64,000 nt of DNA from contig JAUWQY010000001.1 of NCBI GenBank assembly GCA_030610855.1, positions 1,628 through 65,627 of the forward strand, given 5' to 3'. This document shows positions 1,703-53,412 of the stretch, piece after piece (positions within the stretch are counted from its first letter, which is position 1; the number at the start of each line of letters is the position of its first letter). A program made the position numbers and the translations under genes. The notes under the pieces were generated by a model. It worked only from the letters and a program-made list of their open reading frames with translations, was not told the origin of the DNA and made no database searches. Source of the stretch: Dehalococcoidia bacterium. Lineage in GTDB: Bacteria; Chloroflexota; Dehalococcoidia; GIF9; AB-539-J10.

Positions 1703-2011
1703 TTAGACCCAGGACCAAATAGCCAGACCATTCCAGGCGCAAACAAGGAGCATCGCCAGGCTCAAGGGCTTCAATAATCCGCCTCGCTTAAACACTACGA
1801 GGATCAAGACAATTGCAGAGGAAATCAGCCACTTGAATAGCGTGTTACTACCCAATGTCGGGCCAAGCAAAGGGTTAAGCTCATAACTCCCCAGTCCGAG
1901 AGCAGCCCCCGTCAAGCAGCCATCCAGAATATTCAGCCCGATGAAAGCCACGCAGAACAGGACACCTGTGCCTGAATCTGTATCGGCAAGTAGCACCCGA
2001 AGAGTCCTCAT
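1703..2011 (-). CDS. small integral membrane protein, 3 predicted TM helices (DUF5658-like by recollection)
   Basis: Hydrophobic 100-aa ORF with GTG/ATG starts at 2014/2011. There is no competing ORF. Confidence 0.55.
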   Translation of the reverse strand: MRTLRVLLADTDSGTGVLFCVAFIGLNILDGCLTGAALGLGSYELNPLLGPTLGSNTLFKWLISSAIVLILVVFKRGGLLKPLSLAMLLVCAWNGLAIWSWV

Positions 2012-2031
2012 CACTTAAGCACCGGGACTCA

Positions 2032-2057
2032 AGTACCAGTACCTAAGTACCAGTACC
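2032..2057 (-). promoter_or_regulatory. tandem hexamer repeat (GGTACT)x2-TA-(GGTACT)x2 on the coding-sense strand, 18 nt upstream of the membrane-protein start
   Basis: The plus strand reads agtaccagtacc-ta-agtaccagtacc. The same 12-mer recurs inverted at 29557-29568. Confidence 0.5.
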
Positions 2058-2309
2058 CCGCGCCAGTCTAGCGGAGAATGCCAAGGAAGTCAGTAACCAG
2101 GCGGTTACTGAGCGTTTCTTTTCGGTTACAAAGGGTTTCGTTCCGGTTTCATAGAATGGGGTCAACTCCAATTCTCTCTGCGCTCCGGTGCTGCGAGATT
2201 AAGGAAGTCGGCCGAAGCAATCCCGTGGAGAGGCAGATCACTGCCGCACGCTCCTCAGTTGACCGCAATGGCATCCGAGGCTCTGGCCTCGTGCGACAAT
2301 GATTGGCGG

Positions 2310-2894
2310 TCATCCGGATTTGGTTTTGCGCCTCAAGTAATAATAGGCACCATAGCCAAGGAATACAGCAGCCGCGGCAATTCCGACGACCAATCCTGGA
2401 TTGGGCTTAGCTTCGGCCGCGGCCCTTGTCGATACCAGCAGGCGAACATAGAACTTCACGACCAGCATCTCGCTGGATTCAGCAGCGACTCCCAGCCATA
2501 TCTCCCAGTCCTTGCCCGCCCATTCTTGCCCTGGCGGTATGGCTACCGTTACGTTCATGCTGGCCTCAGACTTAGCGGCCAATGGGATTTCTTGGGAGGA
2601 AAAGCTTACCCAGCTATCGTCGGGGAATTCAGCCCTCCCTTCCCTTCTGTCCTCTTCCGGAGGTTGAAAGATAGTGAGGACAAAGACGCGAGCCGTCTCC
2701 TCTTGATTGCGAATCGTCAATTGAAATTCCGCTGCCTCTCCCGGGGGCAGGTTATCTATGCTTACCTCGGTGGGGACAACGCCAAAGGACTGAGCGGGAG
2801 TATCAGCCAAGGTAACGGAAGGCAAGAGGATGATTAGCAGAGTTACGAAGATCAGAGCCAGTTTCATCCCCGCGGTCTCGTAGCGAGAGAGCAT
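2310..2894 (-). CDS. secreted/cell-surface hypothetical protein (N-terminal signal peptide, C-terminal TM anchor)
   Basis: MKLALIFVTLLIILLPSVTLA signal peptide (likely true start near 2867). C-terminal hydrophobic segment plus RRKTK stop-transfer. The opposite-strand ORF 2259..2837 looks non-coding. Confidence 0.6.
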   Translation of the reverse strand: MLSRYETAGMKLALIFVTLLIILLPSVTLADTPAQSFGVVPTEVSIDNLPPGEAAEFQLTIRNQEETARVFVLTIFQPPEEDRREGRAEFPDDSWVSFSSQEIPLAAKSEASMNVTVAIPPGQEWAGKDWEIWLGVAAESSEMLVVKFYVRLLVSTRAAAEAKPNPGLVVGIAAAAVFLGYGAYYYLRRKTKSG

Positions 2895-2987
2895 CCTGCC
2901 GGGTATTCGTACACCTCCAGAAGCCGGTGATCATATTGACAGAGCCGGGCGGAAAGATCGCCACAGACCTGAGATCTCCGGGTTAAC

Positions 2988-3338
2988 CTAGCTTCCACTC
3001 TGAGGCTCATCTCCCGGAACAGCCTCCTTCAGTCCTCTACCCTCGAATTCAGATTCTCTTGCTACCAGGAATATGGTGGCCAGCAGTCCAGGTAGGAACG
3101 GGATTGCAGTAGCGGAACAGAGAGCACCGGCTAGAGCTAGTCTAAACCGCCTCCTCCTGAATGTGAAGAAGGCTCCTACGAATGACATAATCATGAGAAC
3201 CAACGCCAGCACACTCAGTAATCCGATGAGAGCGATTGAGAGACCCCCGAAGACAAACATGACCGCAACTGCCAGGCTTGCGCCGATCATGGCTCCCAAT
3301 CCGCCAATTATCATGAGGATACCTGCTGCTGTTCTCAT
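2988..3338 (-). CDS. hypothetical membrane protein
   Basis: 116-aa ORF with three long hydrophobic helices. The overlapping plus-strand ORF is low-complexity. Confidence 0.4.
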   Translation of the reverse strand: MRTAAGILMIIGGLGAMIGASLAVAVMFVFGGLSIALIGLLSVLALVLMIMSFVGAFFTFRRRRFRLALAGALCSATAIPFLPGLLATIFLVARESEFEGRGLKEAVPGDEPQSGS

Positions 3339-3585
3339 TCAAGACCCCTGCCACAATAAGGCTTGTCAGTCCGGTCTGCTGCCCCTTTTCCGCCTTCTCC
3401 CATTCAGACATATCATATAGAGCGCAACGGGACCCGTCAACGCTCCGTCGGTTGCCGTGCGTCAGCATATACTAATGATAGCCGGTAGCTTCAGGCCACA
3501 ACTTGAAACTTGGCGTTACTTCGGCGTTACTTTGTTGGGGATGCCTTTTCACCGGATGGCGTTTTGCGGGCAGATTGCCCTGCCG

Positions 3586-4143
3586 TCAGGGAGCCACTGC
3601 GATTATGGTGACCGGAGTCTGCATCTCCCTGCCACCAATGAAGTAGCTCGGCGTGAGCAGTCTCAGACCGAATTGCTTGCTGGCGCCGGGAGCCAGGCTT
3701 GAGCCGGTGCCATAGGGCCAAAACTCGCTCTGCGTCTTGGTGATGGGAACATAACCATCGCCGTAGGGGCCTCGTGTAGGGTCGCCAGATATGCGGAACC
3801 ATAACCCGTACACGTGTTCCCCATTATGCCCGTCATCGCTCAACGTCCACGTGTACGCCCCGGGATTGTCCACCCATTTCGCGTCCTCCCCCACAATAAA
3901 GGTATTCACAGCGGAATTGCCGGTTATGGTCAGAGTGCACCACTCTATCTGCGGGTTGGTCATATACTCCGTGTCTGGGGCCACCTGTCCTAGTGGCCAT
4001 TGCGTTATATCCAGACTTATGGAAATCTCATAGGCCCCAGTCATGGTGATGGTTACGGCTTCGCCCCCCTGAGCGTCAGCCGGCAAAGAGGAGACCAGAC
4101 CCAGTACAATGGCTGCCAGGATAACCGCAGTTACTGCCTTCAT
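3586..4143 (-). CDS. secreted hypothetical protein
   Basis: Internal start MKAVTAVILAAIVLGLVSSLPADA is a signal peptide with an AxA cleavage site. I recognise no conserved domain. Confidence 0.6.
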   Translation of the reverse strand: MKAVTAVILAAIVLGLVSSLPADAQGGEAVTITMTGAYEISISLDITQWPLGQVAPDTEYMTNPQIEWCTLTITGNSAVNTFIVGEDAKWVDNPGAYTWTLSDDGHNGEHVYGLWFRISGDPTRGPYGDGYVPITKTQSEFWPYGTGSSLAPGASKQFGLRLLTPSYFIGGREMQTPVTIIAVAP

Positions 4144-4440
4144 CTGCTTCTCCCAACTCAATGACACTCTGCCCACACCGTGATGCCTCGCAGATATCCT
4201 GTGGGGCTTCTTATCAGCGAACACGGCAAGCACTGGCCTCTCCCGAACCCCAGCAGCCATACTACATTACCCCCTCCCCACTGTCAAGCGGCTTGCACTG
4301 GACCGTAGATTATGTGCAGAAAACCTCAAGAAGGCACGGTGACAGAACCCGGAAGGGAGTCCTGAATGGTACGATAGATGACAGACGGCAGGTTAGCTCG
4401 GATTTGCGGACGGCAGCGCCATGTACCTTCTATTGGTGAG

Positions 4441-25541: not shown

Positions 25542-26891
25542 CTATAATATCGGCAAGTATTTCTTAAGCTCATAGTCTGTCACCTGAGTTCGATAGTTAT
25601 CCCACTCAATTCTCTTGTTCTTGATGAAAGCCTCAAAAAGATGGCTGCCGAGTGCCTCGCGCACCACCTTGCTCTTCTCTGCCAGCATTATAGCCTCCAA
25701 GAGGCTAGCCGGTAGTGTTCCTATCCCTCGTTTGCGTCTTTCCTCGTCAGTCATGTCATATACGTTTTCCTCCACAGGGTCAGGAACTTCGTACGCCCTC
25801 TCGATTCCTTCTAATCCGGCCGCCAGGATTACGCTGAAGGCTAGATATGGATTGCATGCCGGGTCAGGCGACCTCAACTCAATCCTGGTTGATTTCTCTC
25901 TGCCGCGGCGATACTCCGGGACCCGGATGAGGTCGGAACGATTCTGCCTCGCCCAGGAGACATATACCGGCGCTTCGTAGCCTGAAACAAGTCTCTTATA
26001 GGAGTTAACCCATTGATTGGTAACCGCGGTGATTTCGGGAGCATGTTTGAGAAGTCCGGCTATGAAGCACTTAGCCGTCCTGGACAGGCAGTATGCATCA
26101 TCTTTGTCAAAGAAGGCGTTCCTATCACCGTTGAACAGCGACTGGTGGACATGCATGCCACATCCGTTCATGCCAAAGATGGGTTTGGGCATGAAAGTGG
26201 CGTAGACTCCGTGCTGTAGCGCGACTTGCTTCACCACCAGACGGTAAGTCATCACGTTGTCCGCCATAGTCAAAGCGTCGGTGTATCTCATGTCTATCTC
26301 GTGTTGGCTGGCCGCGCCTTCATGGTGGGAGTATTCAACGGCGATACCCATCTCCCCCAGGGCAAGAACTGTTTCTCGCCTTAGATCAGTGGCGCCATCC
26401 ATAGAGGTCATGTCGAAGTAGCCTCCTTCGTCCAAACCTTGTGTTCCCTTCGAATCCTGAAAGTAGAAGTACTCCAACTCAGGACCAACGTTGAAGGTAT
26501 ATCCCATGTCGGCCGCCCGCTTCAGATTTCTTCTCAGCACATATCTGGGGTCTCCCTCAAAATGCCCGCCGCGAGGTTTATGTATGTCACAGAACATCCT
26601 GGCTACAGCATTGTGATCTGTCGGTTGCCAAGGTAGTAACTGCCACGTGTCAGGGTCAGGCATCGCCACCATATCGCTCTCATCGATTCGGGCAAAGCCC
26701 TGAATAGAGGAACCATCAAATCCCATTCCTTGCTCCATGGCACCTTCCAGTTCCTCCACCGTAATGGCGAAGTTCTTCAGAATACCCAGGATGTCGGTGA
26801 ACCATAGCCTGATGAACTTAACGTTGTGTTCCTTGGCCATCCTCAGGACACAATCGGTGCCTTCTTCTCTACTTCTCTTATCCATTATCAC
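25542..26891 (-). CDS. glnA: glutamine synthetase type I
   Basis: NVKFIRLWFTDILG N-terminus and full GS catalytic domain. Confidence 0.9.
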   Translation of the reverse strand: MIMDKRSREEGTDCVLRMAKEHNVKFIRLWFTDILGILKNFAITVEELEGAMEQGMGFDGSSIQGFARIDESDMVAMPDPDTWQLLPWQPTDHNAVARMFCDIHKPRGGHFEGDPRYVLRRNLKRAADMGYTFNVGPELEYFYFQDSKGTQGLDEGGYFDMTSMDGATDLRRETVLALGEMGIAVEYSHHEGAASQHEIDMRYTDALTMADNVMTYRLVVKQVALQHGVYATFMPKPIFGMNGCGMHVHQSLFNGDRNAFFDKDDAYCLSRTAKCFIAGLLKHAPEITAVTNQWVNSYKRLVSGYEAPVYVSWARQNRSDLIRVPEYRRGREKSTRIELRSPDPACNPYLAFSVILAAGLEGIERAYEVPDPVEENVYDMTDEERRKRGIGTLPASLLEAIMLAEKSKVVREALGSHLFEAFIKNKRIEWDNYRTQVTDYELKKYLPIL

Positions 26892-27336
26892 CTCTTATAT
26901 GTGTTTGGCATTGGTTCAGAATGTACTTGCACGGCGCCTCAATGAAACATCGCCTCCCTTCCGTGGTCACTATTGTAGCACTTAAGACCATCCAGCGGCA
27001 TCAGATAGTTGAAAACTCTATGCGATTTTCCTGCATCCTGTACCCGCTCCCACTGCAACACGTCACCTCTCACCCCGACAACCCGGTGCCCGGATTGCAG
27101 ATCCCGAAGTCGCTCCACTCCGAATCCCAGACGAGACGCCATAATCCCCGATGTAGCGGCGAGAGCCTTCGACGCACAATCATAGATGAGGCGCTCTTGG
27201 GTGCTCGGGCGTCTTCTCCGCAGGATCGTAGTACTAATTCACTAGGCCAAACAGGACTAACGGGTGATTCCCCTCAATCTGGCTGACTGCTATCTTAAAG
27301 ATACTGCGACTGCATGATGCAACGGAGAGAGACGAT

Positions 27337-27933
27337 ATGAAAACAGTTGCTTCCACCTCCAGTAGTTATGAAACGAGGCTGGTGGCGAAGCTCCGCACGG
27401 ACGACAGCACAGCTATAGAGGAGTTCTATAACGTCTATAGGAGAAGACTCCACTATCTGGTACTGGAGCATGTGGACCGAGACCAGGGCTTAGCTGAGGA
27501 TCTGGTTCAGGAAGTGTTCTTTGCTGCCCTCGGTTCGCTGGACAGGTTCCGTGGTGACAGCCAGCTTTATACCTGGCTGCGCAGTATCGCATTTCACAAG
27601 ATAAACGACTATTACCGCCGCCAGGCGCGGGAGCCTAAGCCCGAGGAATCAACTCCCGAGATTCATGCCCTAAAGCTAGAGCAAGCCACCGGCGATGAAC
27701 AGGCGGCCCATAGTGCTATGGAATCAGAAGAGACTCGCCTCGAAGTTCGCCATGCCCTGGTGGACTTGCCTCGGGATTACCAGGACGTGCTGGTACTGAA
27801 GTACCTTGAAGAGATGCCGGTGATAGAGATAGGTCAGGTTATGGGCCGTTCGCCAAAATCGGTTGAGGGATTGCTCGCCCGAGCCCGGAAAGCGTTGCGT
27901 ACCAGTCTGGCCGCAAGCAACCATGCAACCTGA
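27337..27933 (+). CDS. ECF-subfamily RNA polymerase sigma factor
   Basis: Region 2 (DLVQEVFFAAL...) and region 4 (YQDVLVLKYLEEMPVIEIGQVMGRSPKSVEGLLARARKAL). No recognisable anti-sigma follows. Confidence 0.85.
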   Translation: MKTVASTSSSYETRLVAKLRTDDSTAIEEFYNVYRRRLHYLVLEHVDRDQGLAEDLVQEVFFAALGSLDRFRGDSQLYTWLRSIAFHKINDYYRRQAREPKPEESTPEIHALKLEQATGDEQAAHSAMESEETRLEVRHALVDLPRDYQDVLVLKYLEEMPVIEIGQVMGRSPKSVEGLLARARKALRTSLAASNHAT

Positions 27934-28184
27934 TTGTGGTCTCACACACAATCAGCCAGCGCAGTTCTCCCTTCAGATTACATAGTCTCCTGTCTTTCGT
28001 TGCGATGTTTCTTCCCCTGCCACTGCGAGCGCTTCCTCCGCGACTGGCAAGACCAACCGTCCAGTCTCGTCTCACATCAACGGGAGAAGGTGACAAGGTC
28101 CACTAAGAGGATGACTGGTCGCCTCCCAATCGGCGGGAGCTCCCAAGGGGCTCCCGCTTCGACGGGAGGAGGTAGGTGAAAAGA

Positions 28185-29210
28185 TCAGGGCAAAGATGAT
28201 GATACCGTTGCCGTTACCGCCTGGAAAGCATTGACCAGCCCCTCGCCCACACCATCTCCCATGATAGGAGTGCAACTACTCTCAATGGCCCAGCGCACCT
28301 CGTCATTGGCCATGCCGTTACCGCTGCTATCCTCAGCGACACTGAAGATCAGCGCAGCCACGCCTGAGACATGAGCCGCGGCTGTCGAGGTGCCGGTCCT
28401 ATAGCCATACTGATTCTGGGGCAACTCAGAGTAGATGTTAAACCCGGGACCTGCTACATCCACCCAATAACCATGGCTCGATAACAGAGCTAAGGAATCG
28501 CTCTTGTTGGTACCGGCTACGGCGAGGCAATTGGAGTAATAGGCCGGGTAGGAAGGCTCCGACCCGCCTCTATTGCCCGCCGCCGCTACGATTATTGCTC
28601 CCTGGCTCCAGGCATAGTTTATCGCTTCTTCCAGCTCCGGCGATGCTTTCATGGCTAGGCTTATGTTGATAACTCTCGCCCCGTGGTCCACCGCCCAGAC
28701 GATGCCCCTGGCTACCACCGCTGCCTCGCTCCTCCCCCTATCATCAGCCACCTTCACATTCATCAACCGGCATTCGGGAGCGATGGCGGCGATCGTGCCC
28801 GCTATGTGGGTCCCGTGCCCGTAAACGTCATCGCTCGTTGGGCTATCGGTGAAATTGACCTCGGACACCACTCTATCAGCCAGATCCTGGTTGTCTTTGC
28901 TAATGCCCGTATCCAGCACAGCCACAACAACCGACTGGTCTCCCCTGGTCACCTGCCAGGCCCGGGGTGCCTCAACTCTGCTCACCCCCCACCTCTCAGC
29001 CAGACAACAATCGTCTGGAGAATAGGTCGTCTGCAGAGCAGCACCATCGTCGGGGGCATCCTTATCATGGACACGCTCCGCATCATAGACTGGCAAGATA
29101 CTATGGGCGGATACGTCTCCTCTGGCAGGTAGCACGCCGTGTGCTGACGCAGCAATGAGTATCAGTGCGACCAGCATTAAAGCTATGGCTAAATGTCTTG
29201 GCTTCCTCAA
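28185..29210 (-). CDS. secreted subtilisin-like serine protease (peptidase S8)
   Basis: Signal peptide. Catalytic triad motifs VAVLDTG, HGTHIAG and GTSTAAAHVSG. Confidence 0.85.
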   Translation of the reverse strand: MRKPRHLAIALMLVALILIAASAHGVLPARGDVSAHSILPVYDAERVHDKDAPDDGAALQTTYSPDDCCLAERWGVSRVEAPRAWQVTRGDQSVVVAVLDTGISKDNQDLADRVVSEVNFTDSPTSDDVYGHGTHIAGTIAAIAPECRLMNVKVADDRGRSEAAVVARGIVWAVDHGARVINISLAMKASPELEEAINYAWSQGAIIVAAAGNRGGSEPSYPAYYSNCLAVAGTNKSDSLALLSSHGYWVDVAGPGFNIYSELPQNQYGYRTGTSTAAAHVSGVAALIFSVAEDSSGNGMANDEVRWAIESSCTPIMGDGVGEGLVNAFQAVTATVSSSLP

Positions 29211-29462
29211 TATCCATTATATATAGCAGCCGTCCAATCCAATGAGAATCACCCATGGGTACCGTTTCGGTCACATTCTTTCTAGTATTTAGTAATGTGC
29301 TCTTTTACCCAGGACTTGTTGACCAGGGACGTTTGTAACCCTGTGCATGATCGTGCACAATGCCCGCCATTCAAGGGAGAGTCCCTTCCCAATGTAGAGC
29401 CCATAAGGGGCTACCCTGCAGGAGGTTCGGGCCACCTGGAACATAAAGTGCCTTCCCTCAGG

Positions 29463-29496
29463 GTAGTGCCCCACTTCGATTGAATCGGGGCACTAC
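29463..29496. other. strong hairpin (10-bp stem GTAGTGCCCC/GGGGCACTAC, 14-nt loop) in the divergent intergenic region
   Basis: Perfect inverted repeat. Function unknown. Confidence 0.3.
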
Positions 29497-29556
29497 AGAA
29501 CTGCCTCTTCCTCTCGATTGCTGAAGACTGATAACTGCGTGCTTCACTCGGGATTT

Positions 29557-29582
29557 GGTACTGGTACTTTCTAACCAGTACT
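29557..29582 (+). promoter_or_regulatory. GGTACTGGTACT repeat plus inverted CCAGTACT immediately upstream of a -35 box
   Basis: Same 12-mer as at 2032-2057, in the sense orientation relative to the downstream surface-protein gene. It sits at about -40 to -65 of the promoter below, an activator-site position. Confidence 0.45.
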
Positions 29583-29584
29583 AT

Positions 29585-29613
29585 TTGACAGACCACAAGT
29601 GCTCTGCTAACAT
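29585..29613 (+). promoter_or_regulatory. sigma70-like promoter TTGACA-17 nt-TAACAT driving the surface-protein gene
   Basis: Perfect -35, 17-nt spacer and a 4/6 -10. The implied leader to the 29825 ATG is about 200 nt. Confidence 0.4.
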
Positions 29614-29824
29614 CAGATAGAGTATTCGAGCTTTAAGAGGAGGCAGGGCAAGGTAAGTAGATTCCCTGTTGCTAGCGGTACCTACTACTCTGTTGGCGAA
29701 TCCGCGAAAATCCCCCAAAAGTACTGGAAGAGGCGAGGGATTTCCCCTTTTTTAGCGACTACATATATGACGAAGGTAATATGGCAAAGGTAATGGCTAA
29801 TTAGTCCTAGCCAGGAGGAGAAAT

Positions 29825-32272
29825 ATGAAAAAGAGGATATTTTCTGTAATAAGCGTGGTCATGCTGATTGTCATGACCTTGCCAGCCACCAGCCCCCCAC
29901 CGGTGGTGGCACAGCCAAGTGGGTGGCCGACTATATGGACAGGGCTAGCCTCGGATGATAATGAGCACTGCGAGACGTTCCGCAACGTGGCGGATATGGA
30001 TGGCGATGGCTATGCGCTCTACTACGATGTGGATTCTCAGTATATATACCTGCGCATGGAGACTGTCACTGCACCGGGCTGGCCCTCTACAGGGTCGCAA
30101 GGCGCAGCTCGCTACAAGTGGTGGTTCAGTACCGCGGGGGCGGCTGCCTACGTCAGCGGGACCAGCGTGTACAATGCGGAATTTCTGCTGATACTGGAGG
30201 ACAGGACGGATACAAGCAACGTTGACGGCAGCAGGGATCAACTGGGCGAACTGACCCTCATGGACGACCTGGCAAATATCGGATTTGCAAAACGATGGAA
30301 TAAGGGGGACTCTGGGGCTTACCTCACCGGTACTCCTGACAACGGCGGTTCAAGTTCCCTTTGGAAGAGAGCAGTCGGAAATGGAACGGCTGGGACTGGA
30401 GGACCTCAGGGCGTGATGGGCGCGGATATCGGCTACCGAATTGACAACGGCTTCGTGGACATGTACGTAAGCCGGGCCGCGCTGGGAAACGCGTCCTCGT
30501 TATGCCTCATCTGGGCAACCGATAACCAGAACCCCAATCTGGACCAGGCTCCCAACTGCGACCGCCCAACGGGAGCAAATTGCATCATGCTGGGGGAGGA
30601 CTTCGGCGACGCACCTGCTCCCTACCCCACGCTGATGGCGAATGACGGAGCCCGCCATGCTGTGGGCGACATCTATCTCGGTGCCACTATTGACGCGGAA
30701 TTGGATGGCCAACCAAATTCAACTGCCACGGGCGACGACAACAGTGATCTCGATGATGAGGACGGCGTTGTTTTCACGACGGCATTGGTAAAGAGCCAAT
30801 CGGCCGACGTGACCGTGACTGCGTCGGATGCCGGGTATCTGGATGCCTGGGTGGACTTTAACGACGATGGCGACTGGGCAGATGGTGATGAGCAAATCTT
30901 CGCCGGCCGATCACTCAGTGCGGGAGCCAATTATCTGAACTTCTCAGTGCCTGTGTCGGCAACACAGACCGACCAGGCATTTGCTCGCTTTCGCTTCAGC
31001 AGCGCTGGTGGCTTGTCTTACGATGGGCCTGCTGCTGATGGTGAGGTAGAGGACTACCAGGTGGCAGTTGAGGATCGCCTTATCCTCACCATCACCGCGG
31101 ACAGCGACAGCAAGGTCTACGACGGGACACCCCTGACCAACAGTGGCTACAGCATAACAGCTGGAGCACTGGCAGCAGGCCACTCCCTTGACTCGGTGGT
31201 CGTTACCGGCTCCCAGACAGATGTCGGGAGCAGTGACAATGTGCCGAGCGATGCCGTGATCATGGACAACGGCACCAACGTGACAGCCAAACATGACATC
31301 ACCTACGTTAACGGCACGCTGACAGTCACCCGTAGGCCGCCCCCACCCCCTCGTGGCGGCGGTGGTGGTTGCCCTGTTGGATGTGCCAGATACTTCACGG
31401 TGGACTGGGACGAGAAGATCACCCGTACCTGCCTGCCCGACAATGACCGGCTGGCAGAAGACATGCTCTGTCCTGACCCCGATGGCAAACACAACCTGTT
31501 CCTGGAGCAGGGGACTCTCGCACCTGAAGTCGATGGAGAGCGGCATTACCTGATAATAATCAGAGAGCTTGAAGAAGAAGACACGCCTCCTGTTCCAGAC
31601 AATACTATGGCAGTTGCGGCCTTCAACATAACTCCTGCGGGCGCTGTCTTCGAAGAGGAGATCATCCTGACACTGGGCATCGATCTACTGCCCGACGATG
31701 CCGTGGATGCAGACATATTCTATTACGATGAAGCTCATGGAGTCTGGGTACCGCTGGACGGTGACCCAGTCGATCCAAACGGTGTGGCAGAACTGAGCCT
31801 CTCTGCAGGCGTAAACCACTTCACCGTGTTTGCCGTACTGGTCGACCTCGCTCCGCCGGCTCCTCCCGCCAGTTTTGTGGCCAGTGACTTGAGCATTGAG
31901 CTCAGCGTGGAAAAGATATGGAGCGCTATCACTTTCGTGACCAAGACAGGAGAGAACGTTACCATTACCGCTAAGGTAGAAAACGACGGTGGGCAGGCAG
32001 GCACCTACACTGTTGAGCTCAAGATAAATGGAGAGATAGTGGATAGCGAGACGGTGACACTGGACGCGGGACAAAGCCAGTATGTGAGTTTTGACCGGTC
32101 CGACATGGGTTACGGGCAGTATGAGGTAGAGGTCGCCGGATTGAGCGATACGTTCACAACCTTCCGAACCATCACCTGGTGGCTTATCATCATCCTAATA
32201 GCCGCGATTGGCCTCATTACCTGGGGAGCGGTGTGGGCTAGAAGAAGGCGCAGAGCAAGACAACAGGCATGA
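29825..32272 (+). CDS. large cell-surface protein: signal peptide, GEVED domain, MBG-like domain, Pro/Gly linker, CARDB domain, C-terminal TM anchor
   Basis: Signal peptide MKKRIFSVISVVMLIVMTLPA. DFGDAPAPYPT...ARH...DGQPNSTATGDDNSDLDDEDGV...ADGEVEDYQVAV is GEVED-domain-like. KVYDGTPL...ITYVNGTLTVT is MBG-like. GENVTITAKVENDGGQAGTYTVELKINGEIV is CARDB-like. Terminal hydrophobic helix plus RRRRRAR. Confidence 0.85.
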   Translation: MKKRIFSVISVVMLIVMTLPATSPPPVVAQPSGWPTIWTGLASDDNEHCETFRNVADMDGDGYALYYDVDSQYIYLRMETVTAPGWPSTGSQGAARYKWWFSTAGAAAYVSGTSVYNAEFLLILEDRTDTSNVDGSRDQLGELTLMDDLANIGFAKRWNKGDSGAYLTGTPDNGGSSSLWKRAVGNGTAGTGGPQGVMGADIGYRIDNGFVDMYVSRAALGNASSLCLIWATDNQNPNLDQAPNCDRPTGANCIMLGEDFGDAPAPYPTLMANDGARHAVGDIYLGATIDAELDGQPNSTATGDDNSDLDDEDGVVFTTALVKSQSADVTVTASDAGYLDAWVDFNDDGDWADGDEQIFAGRSLSAGANYLNFSVPVSATQTDQAFARFRFSSAGGLSYDGPAADGEVEDYQVAVEDRLILTITADSDSKVYDGTPLTNSGYSITAGALAAGHSLDSVVVTGSQTDVGSSDNVPSDAVIMDNGTNVTAKHDITYVNGTLTVTRRPPPPPRGGGGGCPVGCARYFTVDWDEKITRTCLPDNDRLAEDMLCPDPDGKHNLFLEQGTLAPEVDGERHYLIIIRELEEEDTPPVPDNTMAVAAFNITPAGAVFEEEIILTLGIDLLPDDAVDADIFYYDEAHGVWVPLDGDPVDPNGVAELSLSAGVNHFTVFAVLVDLAPPAPPASFVASDLSIELSVEKIWSAITFVTKTGENVTITAKVENDGGQAGTYTVELKINGEIVDSETVTLDAGQSQYVSFDRSDMGYGQYEVEVAGLSDTFTTFRTITWWLIIILIAAIGLITWGAVWARRRRRARQQA

Positions 32273-32281
32273 ACGATACAA

Positions 32282-32312
32282 GGGGATAACGTAGCCCGGG
32301 GCTACGTTATCC
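32282..32312 (+). terminator. 13-bp-stem hairpin 10 nt after the surface-protein stop codon
   Basis: GGGATAACGTAGC-ccggg-GCTACGTTATCCC, followed by a C-rich rather than T-rich tract. Confidence 0.45.
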
Positions 32313-32334
32313 CTGTCCCCCCCAATCTGCAAAT

Positions 32335-32498
32335 CCTGTAGTGCGATCTCTTAACGTCGTGGGCCCTCCTGCACGAGGCTAAGGCCTGGCACAACGTTTT
32401 TGTCCCGGCCACTTCTGCGGTGCGACTAAGATCGTGCCGCACCCCGATTTCTGTAGTGCGACCCTTCAGGGTCGTGCATTATCGCGCGAGGCTAAAGC
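32335..32498. repeat. two to three copies of a ~50-nt imperfect direct repeat (CTGTAGTGCGA-N9-GTCGTG-N10-CGAGGCTAARGCC)
   Basis: Copies at 32335-32385 and 32450-32498, with a partial copy at 32414-32442. A 17-bp palindrome GTCCCGATAATCGGGAC follows at 32559-32575. Confidence 0.4.
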
Positions 32499-32672
32499 CA
32501 CCGGTGTCATTGCGAGGGCGTAGCCCGCGGCAATCCCTGCCCCTCCCTGAGATTGCTTCGTCCCGATAATCGGGACTCGCAACAAAAAGGAAACAGCCTC
32601 GCAGCAAGGCAGCGAAGGGCGCTCGCAGCGATATTTCGACATTGTGGCTTGTTCGATATAGAATACCGCTGT

Positions 32673-33611
32673 ATGAGCACGAAGACGCGGCCAAAGCTGA
32701 AGACAGTCTACTGGGGCCTCCTTCTTTTTGCCGTCGCTCACTTGCTCGTCTTTCTTGTTGTCACCCGCGTAGATCCATTCCTGGACGAAAAGGACATACA
32801 TGTGCCGATTCAGCCGTCCGAGCCCATATCATGGTGGCCCGGGGAAGTGACACTCCCCAGCGGAGAGGTCATCGAGGTACCGGCCCATTCAGCGGTAGGG
32901 CCGATCTTGATCTATGTTCTTGCGGCGGCGGCCGCGCTGGGGGTCACACTCTCCTTGATTCCGCTGGCGGCTCTGAAGGTTTTCCTCAGACTGCTGTTTG
33001 CCCTTCTGTTTAGTTGGGGGGCATTCATCGGAACTGTCTTCTACTTGCCCCTTCCTTTGGCTGTCGCCGTCGCCGTCGCGCTTGGAACACTCTGGTTCGT
33101 GATACCCCTCGTCTGGTTACATAACCTGGTGTTGATCTTGGCTGTCAGTAGCCTGGGGGCGGTTTTCGGCCGCTTCATTACCCCGTGGACTGCTATGGCC
33201 ATCATTCTGGCACTCGCCGTCTATGACCTCCTGGCAGTCCGTTTCAAATTCATGCTCTGGATGGCAGACAGGCTATCGCAGATAAATGCCCTGCCGGCAC
33301 TGATCATCCCCAGGAACTATGCTGACTGGAACTTGAACTTGAAAGGCCGCGAAGAGAAGGTGATTCAGGCAAACCCGTCCCAGAGGGAGTACTCCATACT
33401 GGGCGGTGGTGATATCGCCTTCCCTTGTCTGCTTACGGCCTCCGTCTGTTTTGCCCGGGGGCTGGCTCCGGGGGCTATCATCGCGGTACTCGGCGCACTG
33501 GGACTGGTCACTGTCTATGTGATTCAAGCGAAATTCTTGAAGGGGAAGCCAATGGCGGCTCTGCCCCCTATCGCTGCCTTCACATTGGTTGGATTATTGA
33601 TTATCTCGTGA
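32673..33611 (+). CDS. presenilin/SPP-like GxGD intramembrane aspartyl protease homologue
   Basis: Polytopic membrane protein. Motifs YD (LAVYDLLAV), GxGD (LGGGDIAF) and a P-x-AL-like segment (PMAALPP) occur in presenilin order and spacing. Start chosen at ATG 32673. Confidence 0.55.
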   Translation: MSTKTRPKLKTVYWGLLLFAVAHLLVFLVVTRVDPFLDEKDIHVPIQPSEPISWWPGEVTLPSGEVIEVPAHSAVGPILIYVLAAAAALGVTLSLIPLAALKVFLRLLFALLFSWGAFIGTVFYLPLPLAVAVAVALGTLWFVIPLVWLHNLVLILAVSSLGAVFGRFITPWTAMAIILALAVYDLLAVRFKFMLWMADRLSQINALPALIIPRNYADWNLNLKGREEKVIQANPSQREYSILGGGDIAFPCLLTASVCFARGLAPGAIIAVLGALGLVTVYVIQAKFLKGKPMAALPPIAAFTLVGLLIIS

Positions 33612-45852: not shown

Positions 45853-46093
45853 TTCCTATCCCTCCTGCAAGTGTCTTCTGAGGAGCAAGGAGGCATCTCA
45901 CAGCGTTCCGTCTTGCCACAACAGGTCGTGCCTGGTACAGAGCACTGGTCTTTAAGGCATGGGTAGCTGAGAGCAGCCTCTCTAGCTTGTCACTGCCACA
46001 CACCGGACATTGTACACCCTGGCTGTTAAGGGTGCGGAGAAACATCTCCGGAAGGCTCCCGCATTCCAAGCATTTGTACTCATAAATTGGCAT
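45776..46093 (-). CDS. FmdB-family zinc-ribbon protein
   Basis: MPIYEYKCLECGSLPE...CPVCGSDKLERLLSA is a CxxC...CxxC zinc ribbon. AGGAGGT RBS. Internal start at 46093 chosen. Its 3' end overlaps the next gene. Confidence 0.6.
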   Translation of the reverse strand: MPIYEYKCLECGSLPEMFLRTLNSQGVQCPVCGSDKLERLLSATHALKTSALYQARPVVARRNAVRCLLAPQKTLAGGIGNEIGGAYSRTEDGCRLWPSQLFLPV

Positions 46094-46205
46094 CTCTACC
46101 TCCTGGGTTTCTGGTTTTGCTGAAATGACCAGCCATAGCTGTTCTGTACATGAAATGCCTGGCTTTCCCATATTGCCAGGCAAGGTTCCTCCATCGCTTG
46201 CAGTA

Positions 46206-49091: not shown

Positions 49092-49328
49092 TTAGTGCCG
49101 CCGGCAGGTGTCCCCGGTAGAGCAGGGCGGTGCGTTACAACGCTCGGTCTGGCCACAGCAGGTAGTGCCAGGAGCCTGACTACTCGTTCTGATTACATAG
49201 GATGAGGAAATGAGTCTCTCCAACTTTGCACTGCCACAATCAGGGCAGCGCGGGGCCTGCTCAGTACCTCGGACGAACACCTCTGATACCTTGCCGCATT
49301 CGAGACATCTGAAGTCGTGAATTGGCAT
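49092..49328 (-). CDS. FmdB-family zinc-ribbon protein with extra C-terminal Cys cluster
   Basis: MPIHDFRCLECG...CPDCGS, then a CCGQTERCNAPPCSTGDTC tail. Confidence 0.7.
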   Translation of the reverse strand: MPIHDFRCLECGKVSEVFVRGTEQAPRCPDCGSAKLERLISSSYVIRTSSQAPGTTCCGQTERCNAPPCSTGDTCRRH

Positions 49329-49377
49329 CTTTTGTACTAACTCCCTTCCAAACTCGTTTTACGTGAGATAGCCTGCC

Positions 49378-49572
49378 TCATAAACCGACGCTTCGGGTCG
49401 GACTGCTCAGCATACAAGAGCTGCCGGAAGTGGCAACGAAGGCTGAGAAAACACGGCGAGAGCTCTCTGTCCCGCACCTGGGATATTCTACTTCCCCGTC
49501 GCTATTGCTCATACTCCGTCGCAGGTCAAAACGTTCACCACATTTAAGACACTCGTATTCATAGATTGCCAC
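49378..49572 (-). CDS. FmdB-family zinc-ribbon protein
   Basis: MAIYEYECLKCGERFD...YPRCG. Confidence 0.65.
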   Translation of the reverse strand: MAIYEYECLKCGERFDLRRSMSNSDGEVEYPRCGTESSRRVFSAFVATSGSSCMLSSPTRSVGL

Positions 49573-51717: not shown

Positions 51718-51942
51718 TTACTCTATACCTGGCAACCCGCAGACTCCAGAGCTGCAAGTGGGGCAACTCATATCTGCATCTTCGGTTCCACTTGAGCTAT
51801 GGCTAAAAAATGAGGAAATGAGCCTCCTCGGATTTGGAGCGTTACATTCAGGGCAGTTTATACCAGAAATACCTTCGCCAACGCTTTGGCGAACCTCGAA
51901 TCTCTGCCCACATTGGTTACATTGATACTCATAAATAGGCAT
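51718..51942 (-). CDS. FmdB-family zinc-ribbon protein with C-terminal Cys-rich tail
   Basis: MPIYEYQCNQCGQRFE...CPECNA, then a CPTCSSGVCG tail. Confidence 0.7.
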   Translation of the reverse strand: MPIYEYQCNQCGQRFEVRQSVGEGISGINCPECNAPNPRRLISSFFSHSSSGTEDADMSCPTCSSGVCGLPGIE

Positions 51943-53133: not shown

Positions 53134-53412
53134 TTACCACCAAGGGTATCCATAAGGTCCCCGTCTTCGCAAGCCACGACCCAAGCCACGACCCAAGCCA
53201 CGACCGAAGCCGCGACCGAAGCCACGGCCAAAGCCATAGCCCCACCTGGGCCGTACCGGTGCCGGGTAACCGTAACCATAAGCGTACGGATCACCAGGCA
53301 TTGGGTTGGCAAAGCCCGGCCTACCAAAGCCAGCGCAGAAACCAGCCGCCCTACCGGTCATCGGACCTGAGCCCATCGGTCCTGTTCTATCTCCAAATGG
53401 CATCTTTATCAC
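53134..53412 (-). CDS. DUF5320 N-terminal Gly/Arg-rich fragment (first half of a split or frameshifted gene)
   Basis: MPFGDRTGPMGSGPMTGRAAGFCAGFGRPG...(GFGRGLGR)n. Stops at TAA 53134-53136 without a coiled coil. Confidence 0.6.
   Translation of the reverse strand: MIKMPFGDRTGPMGSGPMTGRAAGFCAGFGRPGFANPMPGDPYAYGYGYPAPVRPRWGYGFGRGFGRGFGRGLGRGLGRGLRRRGPYGYPWW
53171..53242 (-). repeat. six tandem 12-nt coding repeats (AAGCCACGACCC variants) encoding (GRGF/GRGL)n
   Basis: Direct tandem units are visible in the sequence. A similar CCCATNCC(G)CGA periodicity at about 52101-52150 encodes (GMGR)n. Confidence 0.6.

Follow-up and report, generated by a model that had tools for sequence, protein, structure and literature searches.

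The window, a stretch of 64,000 nucleotides of contig JAUWQY010000001.1 from an uncultured Dehalococcoidia bacterium, contains between glnA and pyrF a block of genes for an extracytoplasmic function (ECF) sigma factor, a secreted protease of family S8, a large anchored surface protein and an intramembrane protease of the presenilin family. The four open reading frames (ORFs) and both flanking genes are where an initial annotation, made from the letters alone, had placed them. That annotation treated the four genes as one envelope unit; comparison of synteny bears this out for three of them, which recur together across genomic contexts, but excludes the presenilin homologue. The genes are as follows.

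27337-27933, plus strand: ECF-type sigma-70 factor, 198 amino acids, with regions 2 and 4
28185-29210, minus strand: secreted thermitase-like subtilase (S8), 341 amino acids, Peptidase_S8 145 bits (cut-off 21.8)
29825-32272, plus strand: surface protein, 815 amino acids, from a signal peptide to an RRRRR tail
32673-33611, plus strand: presenilin/SPP-family intramembrane aspartyl protease, 312 amino acids, a neighbour of the module

The comparison rests on a scan of species-representative genomes for the S8 protein, which yielded 61 loci that were mapped by tblastn, phmmer and profile searches. Among these are 31 in which the S8 protein is at least 59% identical to that of the window and 25 more distant ones (47-62% identical). 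L002 comes from a close relative and is collinear with the window across purL to gyrB, the DNA being 88-95% identical throughout apart from two segments, 29889-31083 and 32391-32594, which are discussed below. L001 and L008 are more distant contigs, L070-L072 are three contigs of more distant relatives, and by the window's lineage we mean the window, L002, L027 and L028.

The sigma, S8 and surface-protein genes constitute a recurrent envelope module that is widespread in Dehalococcoidia, being seen in about 30 species-level genomes and in differing genomic contexts. L001 and L008 each have the sigma gene (plus strand), the S8 gene (minus strand) and a large GEVED/PKD surface gene (plus strand) in the order found in the window, with flanks entirely unlike those of the window and without a presenilin gene. 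The sigma gene is convergent to S8 in 28 of the 31 closer loci (the exceptions are L017, L033 and L037); the leader of the surface gene, described below, occurs in about 21 of them, and two further genes, A224 and C194, form a pair in 22. Among the 25 more distant loci there are about 17 that lack the sigma gene and in which S8 nevertheless adjoins a protein with the surface protein's conserved C-terminal module; the tie between the protease and an anchored surface protein is thus the deepest conserved link. The full module comprises one or more anchored surface protein genes, a divergent S8 gene, a convergent sigma gene and, usually, A224 and C194 upstream of the sigma gene. Literature searches turned up no account of it.

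The initial annotation had missed that the module reaches a second part of the window, where four envelope genes lie about 23 kb from sigma and S8.

1703-4260, minus strand: detached module genes, comprising the next four entries
3586-4260, minus strand: A224, a secreted protein without a Pfam domain
2988-3338, minus strand: B116, a small multi-pass membrane protein
2310-2894, minus strand: C194, with a signal peptide, an Ig-like domain and a C-terminal transmembrane helix
1703-2014, minus strand: D103, a DUF5658 protein

In about 24 loci, homologues of A224 and C194 immediately precede the sigma gene and share its strand; the upstream neighbour of the sigma gene is either C194 or glnA. In the window's lineage glnA-purL occupies this position; A224 and C194 belong to the module and are detached there. 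The D103 homologue comes after the surface gene in L008 and L029. A224 is a member of a family of at least 584 'hypothetical' proteins; it has no Pfam match even at relaxed thresholds, and the mean predicted local distance difference test (pLDDT) score of its predicted structure is 37. The arrangement at one locus, L017 (7995-10345), suggests a variant produced by natural deletion: the sigma gene is cleanly missing between S8 and C194, with the S8 promoter element kept.

A single promoter design is common to the sigma and S8 genes.

27229-27304, plus strand: sigma promoter module, with GTAC boxes, GGGTGATTCC, N15 and CTGCTAT (a TGnTAT-type -10)
29222-29270, minus strand: S8 promoter module, of the same architecture, with a TATATAAT box

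The block upstream of the sigma gene is conserved in about 32 loci, and a profile built from it scores 62 bits in the window. A profile made from sigma-upstream DNA alone matches the site upstream of S8 in the window with an E value of 2e-7 and the S8-upstream region, in the orientation of S8, in at least 30 loci (E 1e-12 to 1e-3); beyond the sigma and S8 sites it has no further match in the 64-kb window. The joint consensus reads GTAC-containing boxes, (A/G)ATGGGTGATTC, N15, GCTGnTAT, and the design can be summarized as one to five AAAACRGTACC boxes at 11-bp phasing, 3 nt, GGGTGATTC, N15 and TGnTAT. From this shared architecture coupled expression of the two genes is predicted.

When metagenome contigs were scanned with AAACRGKACNNNNRGGTGATTC, 120 stretches matched the core pattern, with the full element upstream of sigma genes 36 times, of S8 genes about 30 times and of genes for other secreted proteins about 12 times. 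Tandem boxes in these contigs number two to five AAAACRGTACC copies with an exact 11-bp period, and in 1.59 Mb of loci 18 of 20 tandem arrays have GGGTGATTC 3 nt downstream. The other secreted proteins encoded behind the box-GGGTGATTC promoter (in L080, L094, L099, L103, L113, L118, L119, L123, L141, L166 and L192) are 486-746 amino acids long where complete, and two that run off their contigs exceed 826. They have S8-like signal peptides, most have an N-domain starting VTETAFGTDTTDHYVNMPATV, and those that can be read fully have InlB-B-like repeats and a C-terminal CFIATAAYG.

Two variant arrangements of these control regions were noticed. L020 (1000-1624) has a lipoprotein-like gene of about 164 amino acids (MKRALVLVILVSLVAL..GC) behind a partial copy of the surface-gene leader. 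L079 (10980-11700) and L152 have an ORF of 204-207 amino acids behind a sigma-type promoter, in which a remnant of the first ~30 codons of sigma is joined to the lipoprotein-like sequence of L020.

Phased direct repeats that abut a weak -35 region, combined with an extended -10 of the form TGnTAT, are a typical design of promoters under winged-helix response regulators of the PhoB/OmpR family. Genes for such regulators occur at some of the loci: in L011, L016 and L026 an OmpR-type regulator (Trans_reg_C 79 bits) and a single receiver domain are encoded between S8 and the surface gene, each of these insertions being preceded by a copy of the promoter and leader of the surface gene, and OmpR-type response-regulator genes are also found near S8 in L033 and L052.

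The sigma factor itself satisfies the definition of the ECF class (group IV), having regions 2 and 4 only, a length of about 200 amino acids and a match to the ECF superfamily model (TIGR02937, 102 bits against a cut-off of 43), with 49 bits to Sigma70_r2 and 48 bits to r4_2. No subfamily or equivalog model reaches its cut-off with the 198-residue protein. It had been described as an ECF factor without a recognisable anti-sigma partner, and the profile matches agree; no anti-sigma gene lies next to the sigma gene in any relative examined. Two places in which such a partner might have been sought were rejected. The gap between sigma and S8 holds two ORFs with no Pfam match; in relatives its length is anywhere from about 50 to about 620 nt, so that it carries no conserved ORF. 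C194 is a protein with a signal peptide, of which only about eight residues are exposed to the cytoplasm. Ahead of the sigma start codon is a leader of about 45 nt, in which GAGG forms the ribosome-binding site. A repeat search of the gap between the convergent genes gave an inverted repeat that is probably a bidirectional terminator.

28133-28157: 11-bp inverted repeat, 91% complementary, between the convergent sigma and S8 genes

The protease had been called a divergent S8 enzyme. It is divergent in orientation only; the protein is a secreted subtilase of MEROPS family S8A (PF00082), with the triad D100/H132/S275 and the oxyanion residue N213 intact. Its best solved relative is thermitase (1THM, E 6e-55), the alignment with which begins at residue 63, so that it is preceded by a signal peptide and by no more than about 37 amino acids of pro-region; the sole hydrophobic segment is N-terminal (3-31). 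Assignment as a mycosin was rejected, because the score to TIGR03921 is 174 bits against a cut-off of 279 and there is no C-terminal transmembrane anchor; no type VII secretion genes were seen among the annotated and mapped neighbours of S8. In 29208-29235 the start codon, TTG at 29210, lacks a Shine-Dalgarno sequence and the TATATAAT box ends 5 nt before it (4-6 nt before the start across loci), from which the S8 mRNA is probably leaderless.

The surface protein consists, in order, of a signal peptide, an N-domain, a GEVED domain, an MBG-like segment, a stalk of two beta-sandwiches that include CARDB, a transmembrane helix and RRRRR. Two parts of it behave differently in comparisons between genomes.

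29889-31083, plus strand: exchangeable head cassette (N-domain and GEVED), without DNA similarity to L002
31337-32272, plus strand: conserved C-terminal module of about 310 amino acids, from an alignment of seven complete proteins

Of the GEVED-MBG-CARDB composition originally proposed, GEVED (PF20009, 47 bits against a cut-off of 24.4, residues 338-413, with GEVEDY at 406) and CARDB (PF07705, 29.7 bits against 22.7) were confirmed by their domain profiles. MBG_2 lies just below threshold (17.8 bits, cut-off 25), yet positions 1-72 of its 72 are aligned, and homologues of the segment (P0029, P0040 and P0097) carry PF18676. The N-domain and the stalk domain have no Pfam match at relaxed thresholds. 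The protein begins with a signal-like segment, and towards its C-terminus a single hydrophobic helix (777-806) leads into RRRRR, so that a transmembrane anchor in place of a sortase or PEP-CTERM signal, as had been suggested, is upheld; no NCBIfam model for C-terminal sorting signals (LPXTG, PEP-CTERM, PGF-CTERM and others) matches at E of 0.1 or below.

Proteins encoded behind the leader range from 583 to 1937 amino acids and share the signal peptide MKRxIxSLxxVVMLV and the C-terminal module, in which a Pro/Gly linker is followed by a beta-sandwich domain, CARDB, SRTITWW, the transmembrane helix and an Arg cluster. An AlphaFold2 model of this module (mean pLDDT 64) has two beta-sandwiches and a helix, and its fold matches are generic, namely Ig-like domains and CARDB (3IDU). 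The segment 29889-31083 is the only coding stretch without DNA similarity to L002, which has a PKD head there; the breakpoints are sharp and the flanks are 88-95% identical. The head of the window protein is 74-79% identical to those of the distant L001, L008 and L013. Since the head has been replaced with respect to L002 and is shared with distant loci, heads move as cassettes that fit between the conserved 5' and 3' parts.

Taken together, these features suggest a circuit to which we assign a probability of about 0.6. An envelope signal would lead an activator, binding the phased boxes, to turn on sigma, the protease and some other secreted proteins together; the likeliest candidate for the activator is an OmpR/PhoB-type response regulator, which is encoded within the locus in some genomes. 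The S8 protease would mature, trim or shed the abundant anchored surface proteins, and sigma, controlled through its own synthesis instead of by an anti-sigma factor, would extend the response to further targets. Recombination between the conserved 5' end (leader and signal peptide) and the 3' stalk would swap heads and so diversify the exposed surface.

Several points weigh against this circuit. Every regulatory and enzymatic step in it, including the probable cleavage of the surface protein by S8, is inferred from sequence. S8 is kept without an adjacent surface gene in L027, L028 and L030. The two promoters of the window, those of sigma and S8, have one good box each; the window contains neither response-regulator nor histidine kinase genes, and regulators are inside or next to the locus in just five of about 60 loci. 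The loci derive from metagenome-assembled genomes (MAGs), some from bins with doubtful taxonomic labels. Finally, the GGGTGATTC element could instead be the -35 region of an ECF-dependent, autoregulated promoter.

This last possibility amounts to a different account of the shared promoter, in which it would be read by the ECF sigma factor, giving autoregulation and direct drive of the genes for S8 and other secreted proteins; GGGTGATTC would be the -35 and GCTGnTAT the -10, and the phased boxes would contribute a further input, from an activator or UP-like. ECF factors usually activate their own gene and a target gene next to it, and the arrangement fits this: the element is upstream of both sigma and S8 in nearly all loci, and its -35 region differs from the TTGACA promoters of the surface gene and A224. 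On the other hand, the -10 region is TGnTATAAT-like, which is a housekeeping extended -10 without the AAC or CGT signatures common in ECF promoters, and a variable count of 11-bp direct repeats is typical of winged-helix activators. The full element is moreover kept at S8 with no sigma gene nearby in L017, L033 and L037. Direct reading by the sigma factor is the main rival of the activator-driven circuit, and we judge it the less likely of the two.

The surface gene has control sequences of its own in the 614-nt region that separates it from S8, a region conserved at both ends and variable in the middle.

29463-29496: hairpin with a 10-bp stem, in the lineage-specific centre of the intergenic region
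29557-29613, plus strand: GTAC boxes (GGTACTGGTACTTTCTAACCAGTACT) and a housekeeping-type promoter, conserved in 23 aligned leaders
29620-29824, plus strand: 5' leader of the surface gene, about 205 nt, with nhmmer matches in more than 25 loci

The hairpin and the GGTACT repeats of this region had both been noted at the outset and both are real; the segment around the hairpin (~29352-29540) is not conserved in L001 or L008. The repeat GGTACTGGTAC occurs three times in the window against 0.45 expected, a number reached by none of 100 shuffles. Its copy at 29557-29569 is lineage-specific and recurs upstream of D103: at 2030-2057, just upstream of the D103 start codon, AGTACCAGTACCTAAGTACCAGTACC is GGTACTGGTACTT twice on the minus strand, and the 13-mer of this repeat is identical to that at 29557-29569. 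Related GTAC boxes precede the D103 homologue of L029.

The surface promoter (29585-29613) is TTGACA-17-TAACAT with a TG, near to consensus; over the 23 leaders the consensus is TTGAC-17/18-TAGCAT, and a GTAC box, AACCAGTACTA, which is close to AAACAGTACCA, abuts its -35. A promoter of the same type precedes the unrelated A224 operon. Whether the ECF sigma drives 29585-29613 had been put forward as a check; a near-consensus promoter of housekeeping type, as at the A224 operon, is unlikely to need it.

The leader contains a Shine-Dalgarno-like GGAGG close to the 5' end, a pair of small hairpins and tandem GGTAAT motifs, and its ribosome-binding site, AGGAGGA, is a strong one. By analogy with S-layer genes and the cryIIIA stabiliser, these features would point to an mRNA that is stabilised and strongly expressed. 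The promoter, the length of the leader, the ribosome-binding site and the Ig-like domains of the stalk are no more than indirect hints that the protein may form an S-layer. A small peptide encoded in the leader was considered and rejected, because several sequences lack the ATG of the tandem ATGACAAAGGTAAT motif. It might also be argued that the leader acts as a riboswitch or an attenuator, or encodes a small RNA whose end is the U-run some 75 nt ahead of the start codon; the leader, instead of the promoters, would then control the surface gene. The leader is indeed conserved about as well as coding DNA, with a mean column identity of 74% over the 23 sequences, all of which have a 7-bp AAATCCC/GGGATTT hairpin followed by a T-run, and a bulged hairpin shows some AU-to-GC changes. 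Yet there is no Rfam match at the gathering score or even at E = 1, the consensus structure is almost nil (RNAalifold -2.4 kcal/mol), single sequences fold no better than shuffles (z +0.5 to +1.4), and the terminator-like hairpin has no compensatory change and one pair broken in seven sequences. An RNA device of this kind is accordingly improbable.

Downstream of the surface gene lies a spacer of about 400 nt with direct and inverted repeats, followed by the presenilin homologue.

32283-32313: perfect 15-bp palindrome, 100% complementary, just past the surface-gene stop and conserved in L002
32391-32594: REP-like palindromic insertion of about 200 nt, a gap in the alignment with L002, from which it is absent

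The palindrome is probably the terminator of the surface gene. The repeats were rightly recorded but are not unusual as had been thought: they are REP-like and common in the intergenic DNA of Dehalococcoidia, where sub-elements recur in L009, L011, L012, L014, L021, L024, L038 and others, often between convergent S8 and sigma genes.

That the last gene encodes a GxGD intramembrane protease was correctly recognised. It matches PF06550 (39.5 bits against a cut-off of 23.9), and VYD (183-185), GGGD (244-247) and ALPP (296-299) align to the archaeal protein PSH (4HYG), as expected of family A22; the equivalog model for archaeal PSH is not reached (44.5 bits against a cut-off of 125). Orthologues favour a start at ATG 32673, giving 312 amino acids, over one at 32553. 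In 32636-32675 the sequence TCGACA-17-TAGAAT stops 8 nt short of ATG 32673; a Shine-Dalgarno sequence is lacking, and the transcript looks leaderless. The best 120 of 978 homologues are at least 79% identical; among these, the ones with a named source are from Dehalococcoidia, and the sources already label them presenilin-family proteases.

This gene adjoins the module only in the window, L002, L027 and L028. In L070-L072 its homologue, about 80% identical, lies among genes of the chorismate pathway and for tRNA synthetases, trigger factor and ClpP. From this housekeeping context, and because the adjacency is restricted to one lineage, we conclude that the presenilin homologue is a core gene and not a member of the module, which corrects an over-interpretation; for the same reason the 'protease pair' of the initial annotation has no backing from gene neighbourhood.

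The fuller form of that proposal holds that the four genes are one unit in which S8 and the presenilin homologue perform site-1 and site-2 cleavage of the anchored surface protein or of an unseen anti-sigma factor, so releasing or activating sigma. Presenilins cleave type-I proteins after ectodomain shedding, the surface protein has type-I topology, both proteases flank its gene in the window and L002, and the catalytic motifs of both are intact. Set against this are not only the single lineage and the aromatic-biosynthesis, tRNA-synthetase and trigger-factor neighbours in L070-L072, but also the persistence of the presenilin gene where the surface gene is missing (L027 and L028, where it is directly beside S8 with no surface gene between), the lack of an anti-sigma candidate in any locus, and a cytoplasmic tail of the surface protein of about 10 residues, too short to hold sigma. 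We consider the four-gene unit very improbable. It is scarcely credible that there is no functional link at all, the arrangement being inherited synteny or the sigma-S8 pair a passively moving cassette bounded by inverted repeats, for although the purL to gyrB neighbourhood is collinear with L002 and shared elements upstream of convergent genes do form inverted repeats around the pair, the internal order of the module is kept while its flanks differ, the element consists of spaced motifs ending in a -10 box at the right distance from the start, unlike terminal repeats, single genes from other families have it upstream as well, and no transposase gene was seen beside the module in annotated loci.

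The module draws on known protein families, and similar circuits are known from envelope stress and from the maturation of surface layers. In Streptomyces coelicolor the level of SigE, which works with CseA, CseB and CseC (ECF group 39), is set by an OmpR-type regulator in response to envelope stress. Here too there would be an ECF factor without an anti-sigma, its level set by transcription of its own gene; the differences are that mostly no kinase or regulator is found beside sigma, that the partner is a subtilase and that the promoter boxes are other ones, and the resemblance to ECF39 is functional only, with regulators in or next to so few loci (five of ~60). In the sigmaE-DegP system of E. 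coli and CssRS-HtrA of Bacillus subtilis, a stress regulator induces an extracytoplasmic serine protease for envelope proteins. The protease considered here is a thermitase-like S8 enzyme, not HtrA, and is tied genetically to one family of anchored surface proteins. Clostridioides difficile offers a precedent for maturation, as Cwp84, a secreted protease encoded near slpA, cleaves the surface-layer precursor SlpA. Cwp84 is a cysteine protease and SlpA is anchored to the wall by CWB2, in contrast to the C-terminal transmembrane anchor and predicted cleavage by S8 in the present case. In Porphyromonas gingivalis a PorY-PorX-SigP cascade is described as regulating genes of type IX secretion (PMC4800418); there a two-component system uses an ECF sigma factor to control the genes of secreted and surface proteins. 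In the window the phased boxes upstream of the sigma gene are all that points to an activator, and no secretion-system genes are linked to the module.

The C-terminus of the surface protein recalls the LPXTG/sortase, PEP-CTERM/exosortase and PGF-CTERM/archaeosortase systems in having a short motif (SRTITWW), a hydrophobic helix and an Arg cluster. It differs from them in matching no known model and in having no linked sortase-like membrane enzyme, the linked enzyme being a soluble subtilase. The presenilin homologue and archaeal PSH share an aligned catalytic core in which the YD, GxGD and (A/G)LPP motifs are kept in the window protein, which scores just 31 bits to PSH, is bacterial and is unlinked to the module. 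A bolder proposal, which we regard as a long shot, is that the C-terminal module is a new system by which Dehalococcoidia anchor and release surface proteins, with the co-conserved S8 as its dedicated sheddase or maturase and the presenilin homologue, on this view conserved universally, clearing type-I membrane stubs. If true, this would be a bacterial counterpart of ectodomain shedding and gamma-secretase-type cleavage, combined with the exchange of head cassettes.

Some observations concern the surroundings of the module. The contrast in composition between the block and its flanks, on which the initial annotation had remarked, is present but small: the GC content is 0.55-0.58 in the block, 0.51-0.55 in the flanks and 0.53 in the whole window. 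A GC difference of 0.02-0.05 gives too weak a signal to argue for horizontal transfer from composition. The glnA protein (25542-26891) is about 80% identical to the L002 copy, compared with 90-95% for neighbouring genes, and the window glnA may have a separate history. Scans of the region found no Rfam families and no tRNAs. Elsewhere, a 12-nt tandem repeat, CAAGCCACGACC, is present in five to six copies at 53170-53241, which if read on the minus strand would give a GRGL/GRGF repeat; and minus-strand segments of 36-61 nt are repeated at 45964-46095, 49202-49330, 49537-49572 and 51810-51942, in at most four copies per 6 kb, which by eye resemble the 5' ends of small paralogous genes whose products would begin with MPIYEYKC (zinc-ribbon type).

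In sediments and aquifers Dehalococcoidia are abundant; most are uncultured, and little is understood of their cell envelope. The sigma factor adds a further example of an ECF protein that is probably controlled via its own synthesis, without an anti-sigma factor. The regulatory DNA code, comprising phased AAAACRGTACC boxes and GGGTGATTC, can be searched for in any MAG and so opens a way to predict the regulon. The module supplies a concrete candidate for the main variable surface protein of Dehalococcoidia, along with a candidate dedicated protease, and the exchange of its head cassettes between close relatives bears on phage and predator pressure and on how strain variation in metagenomes is read.

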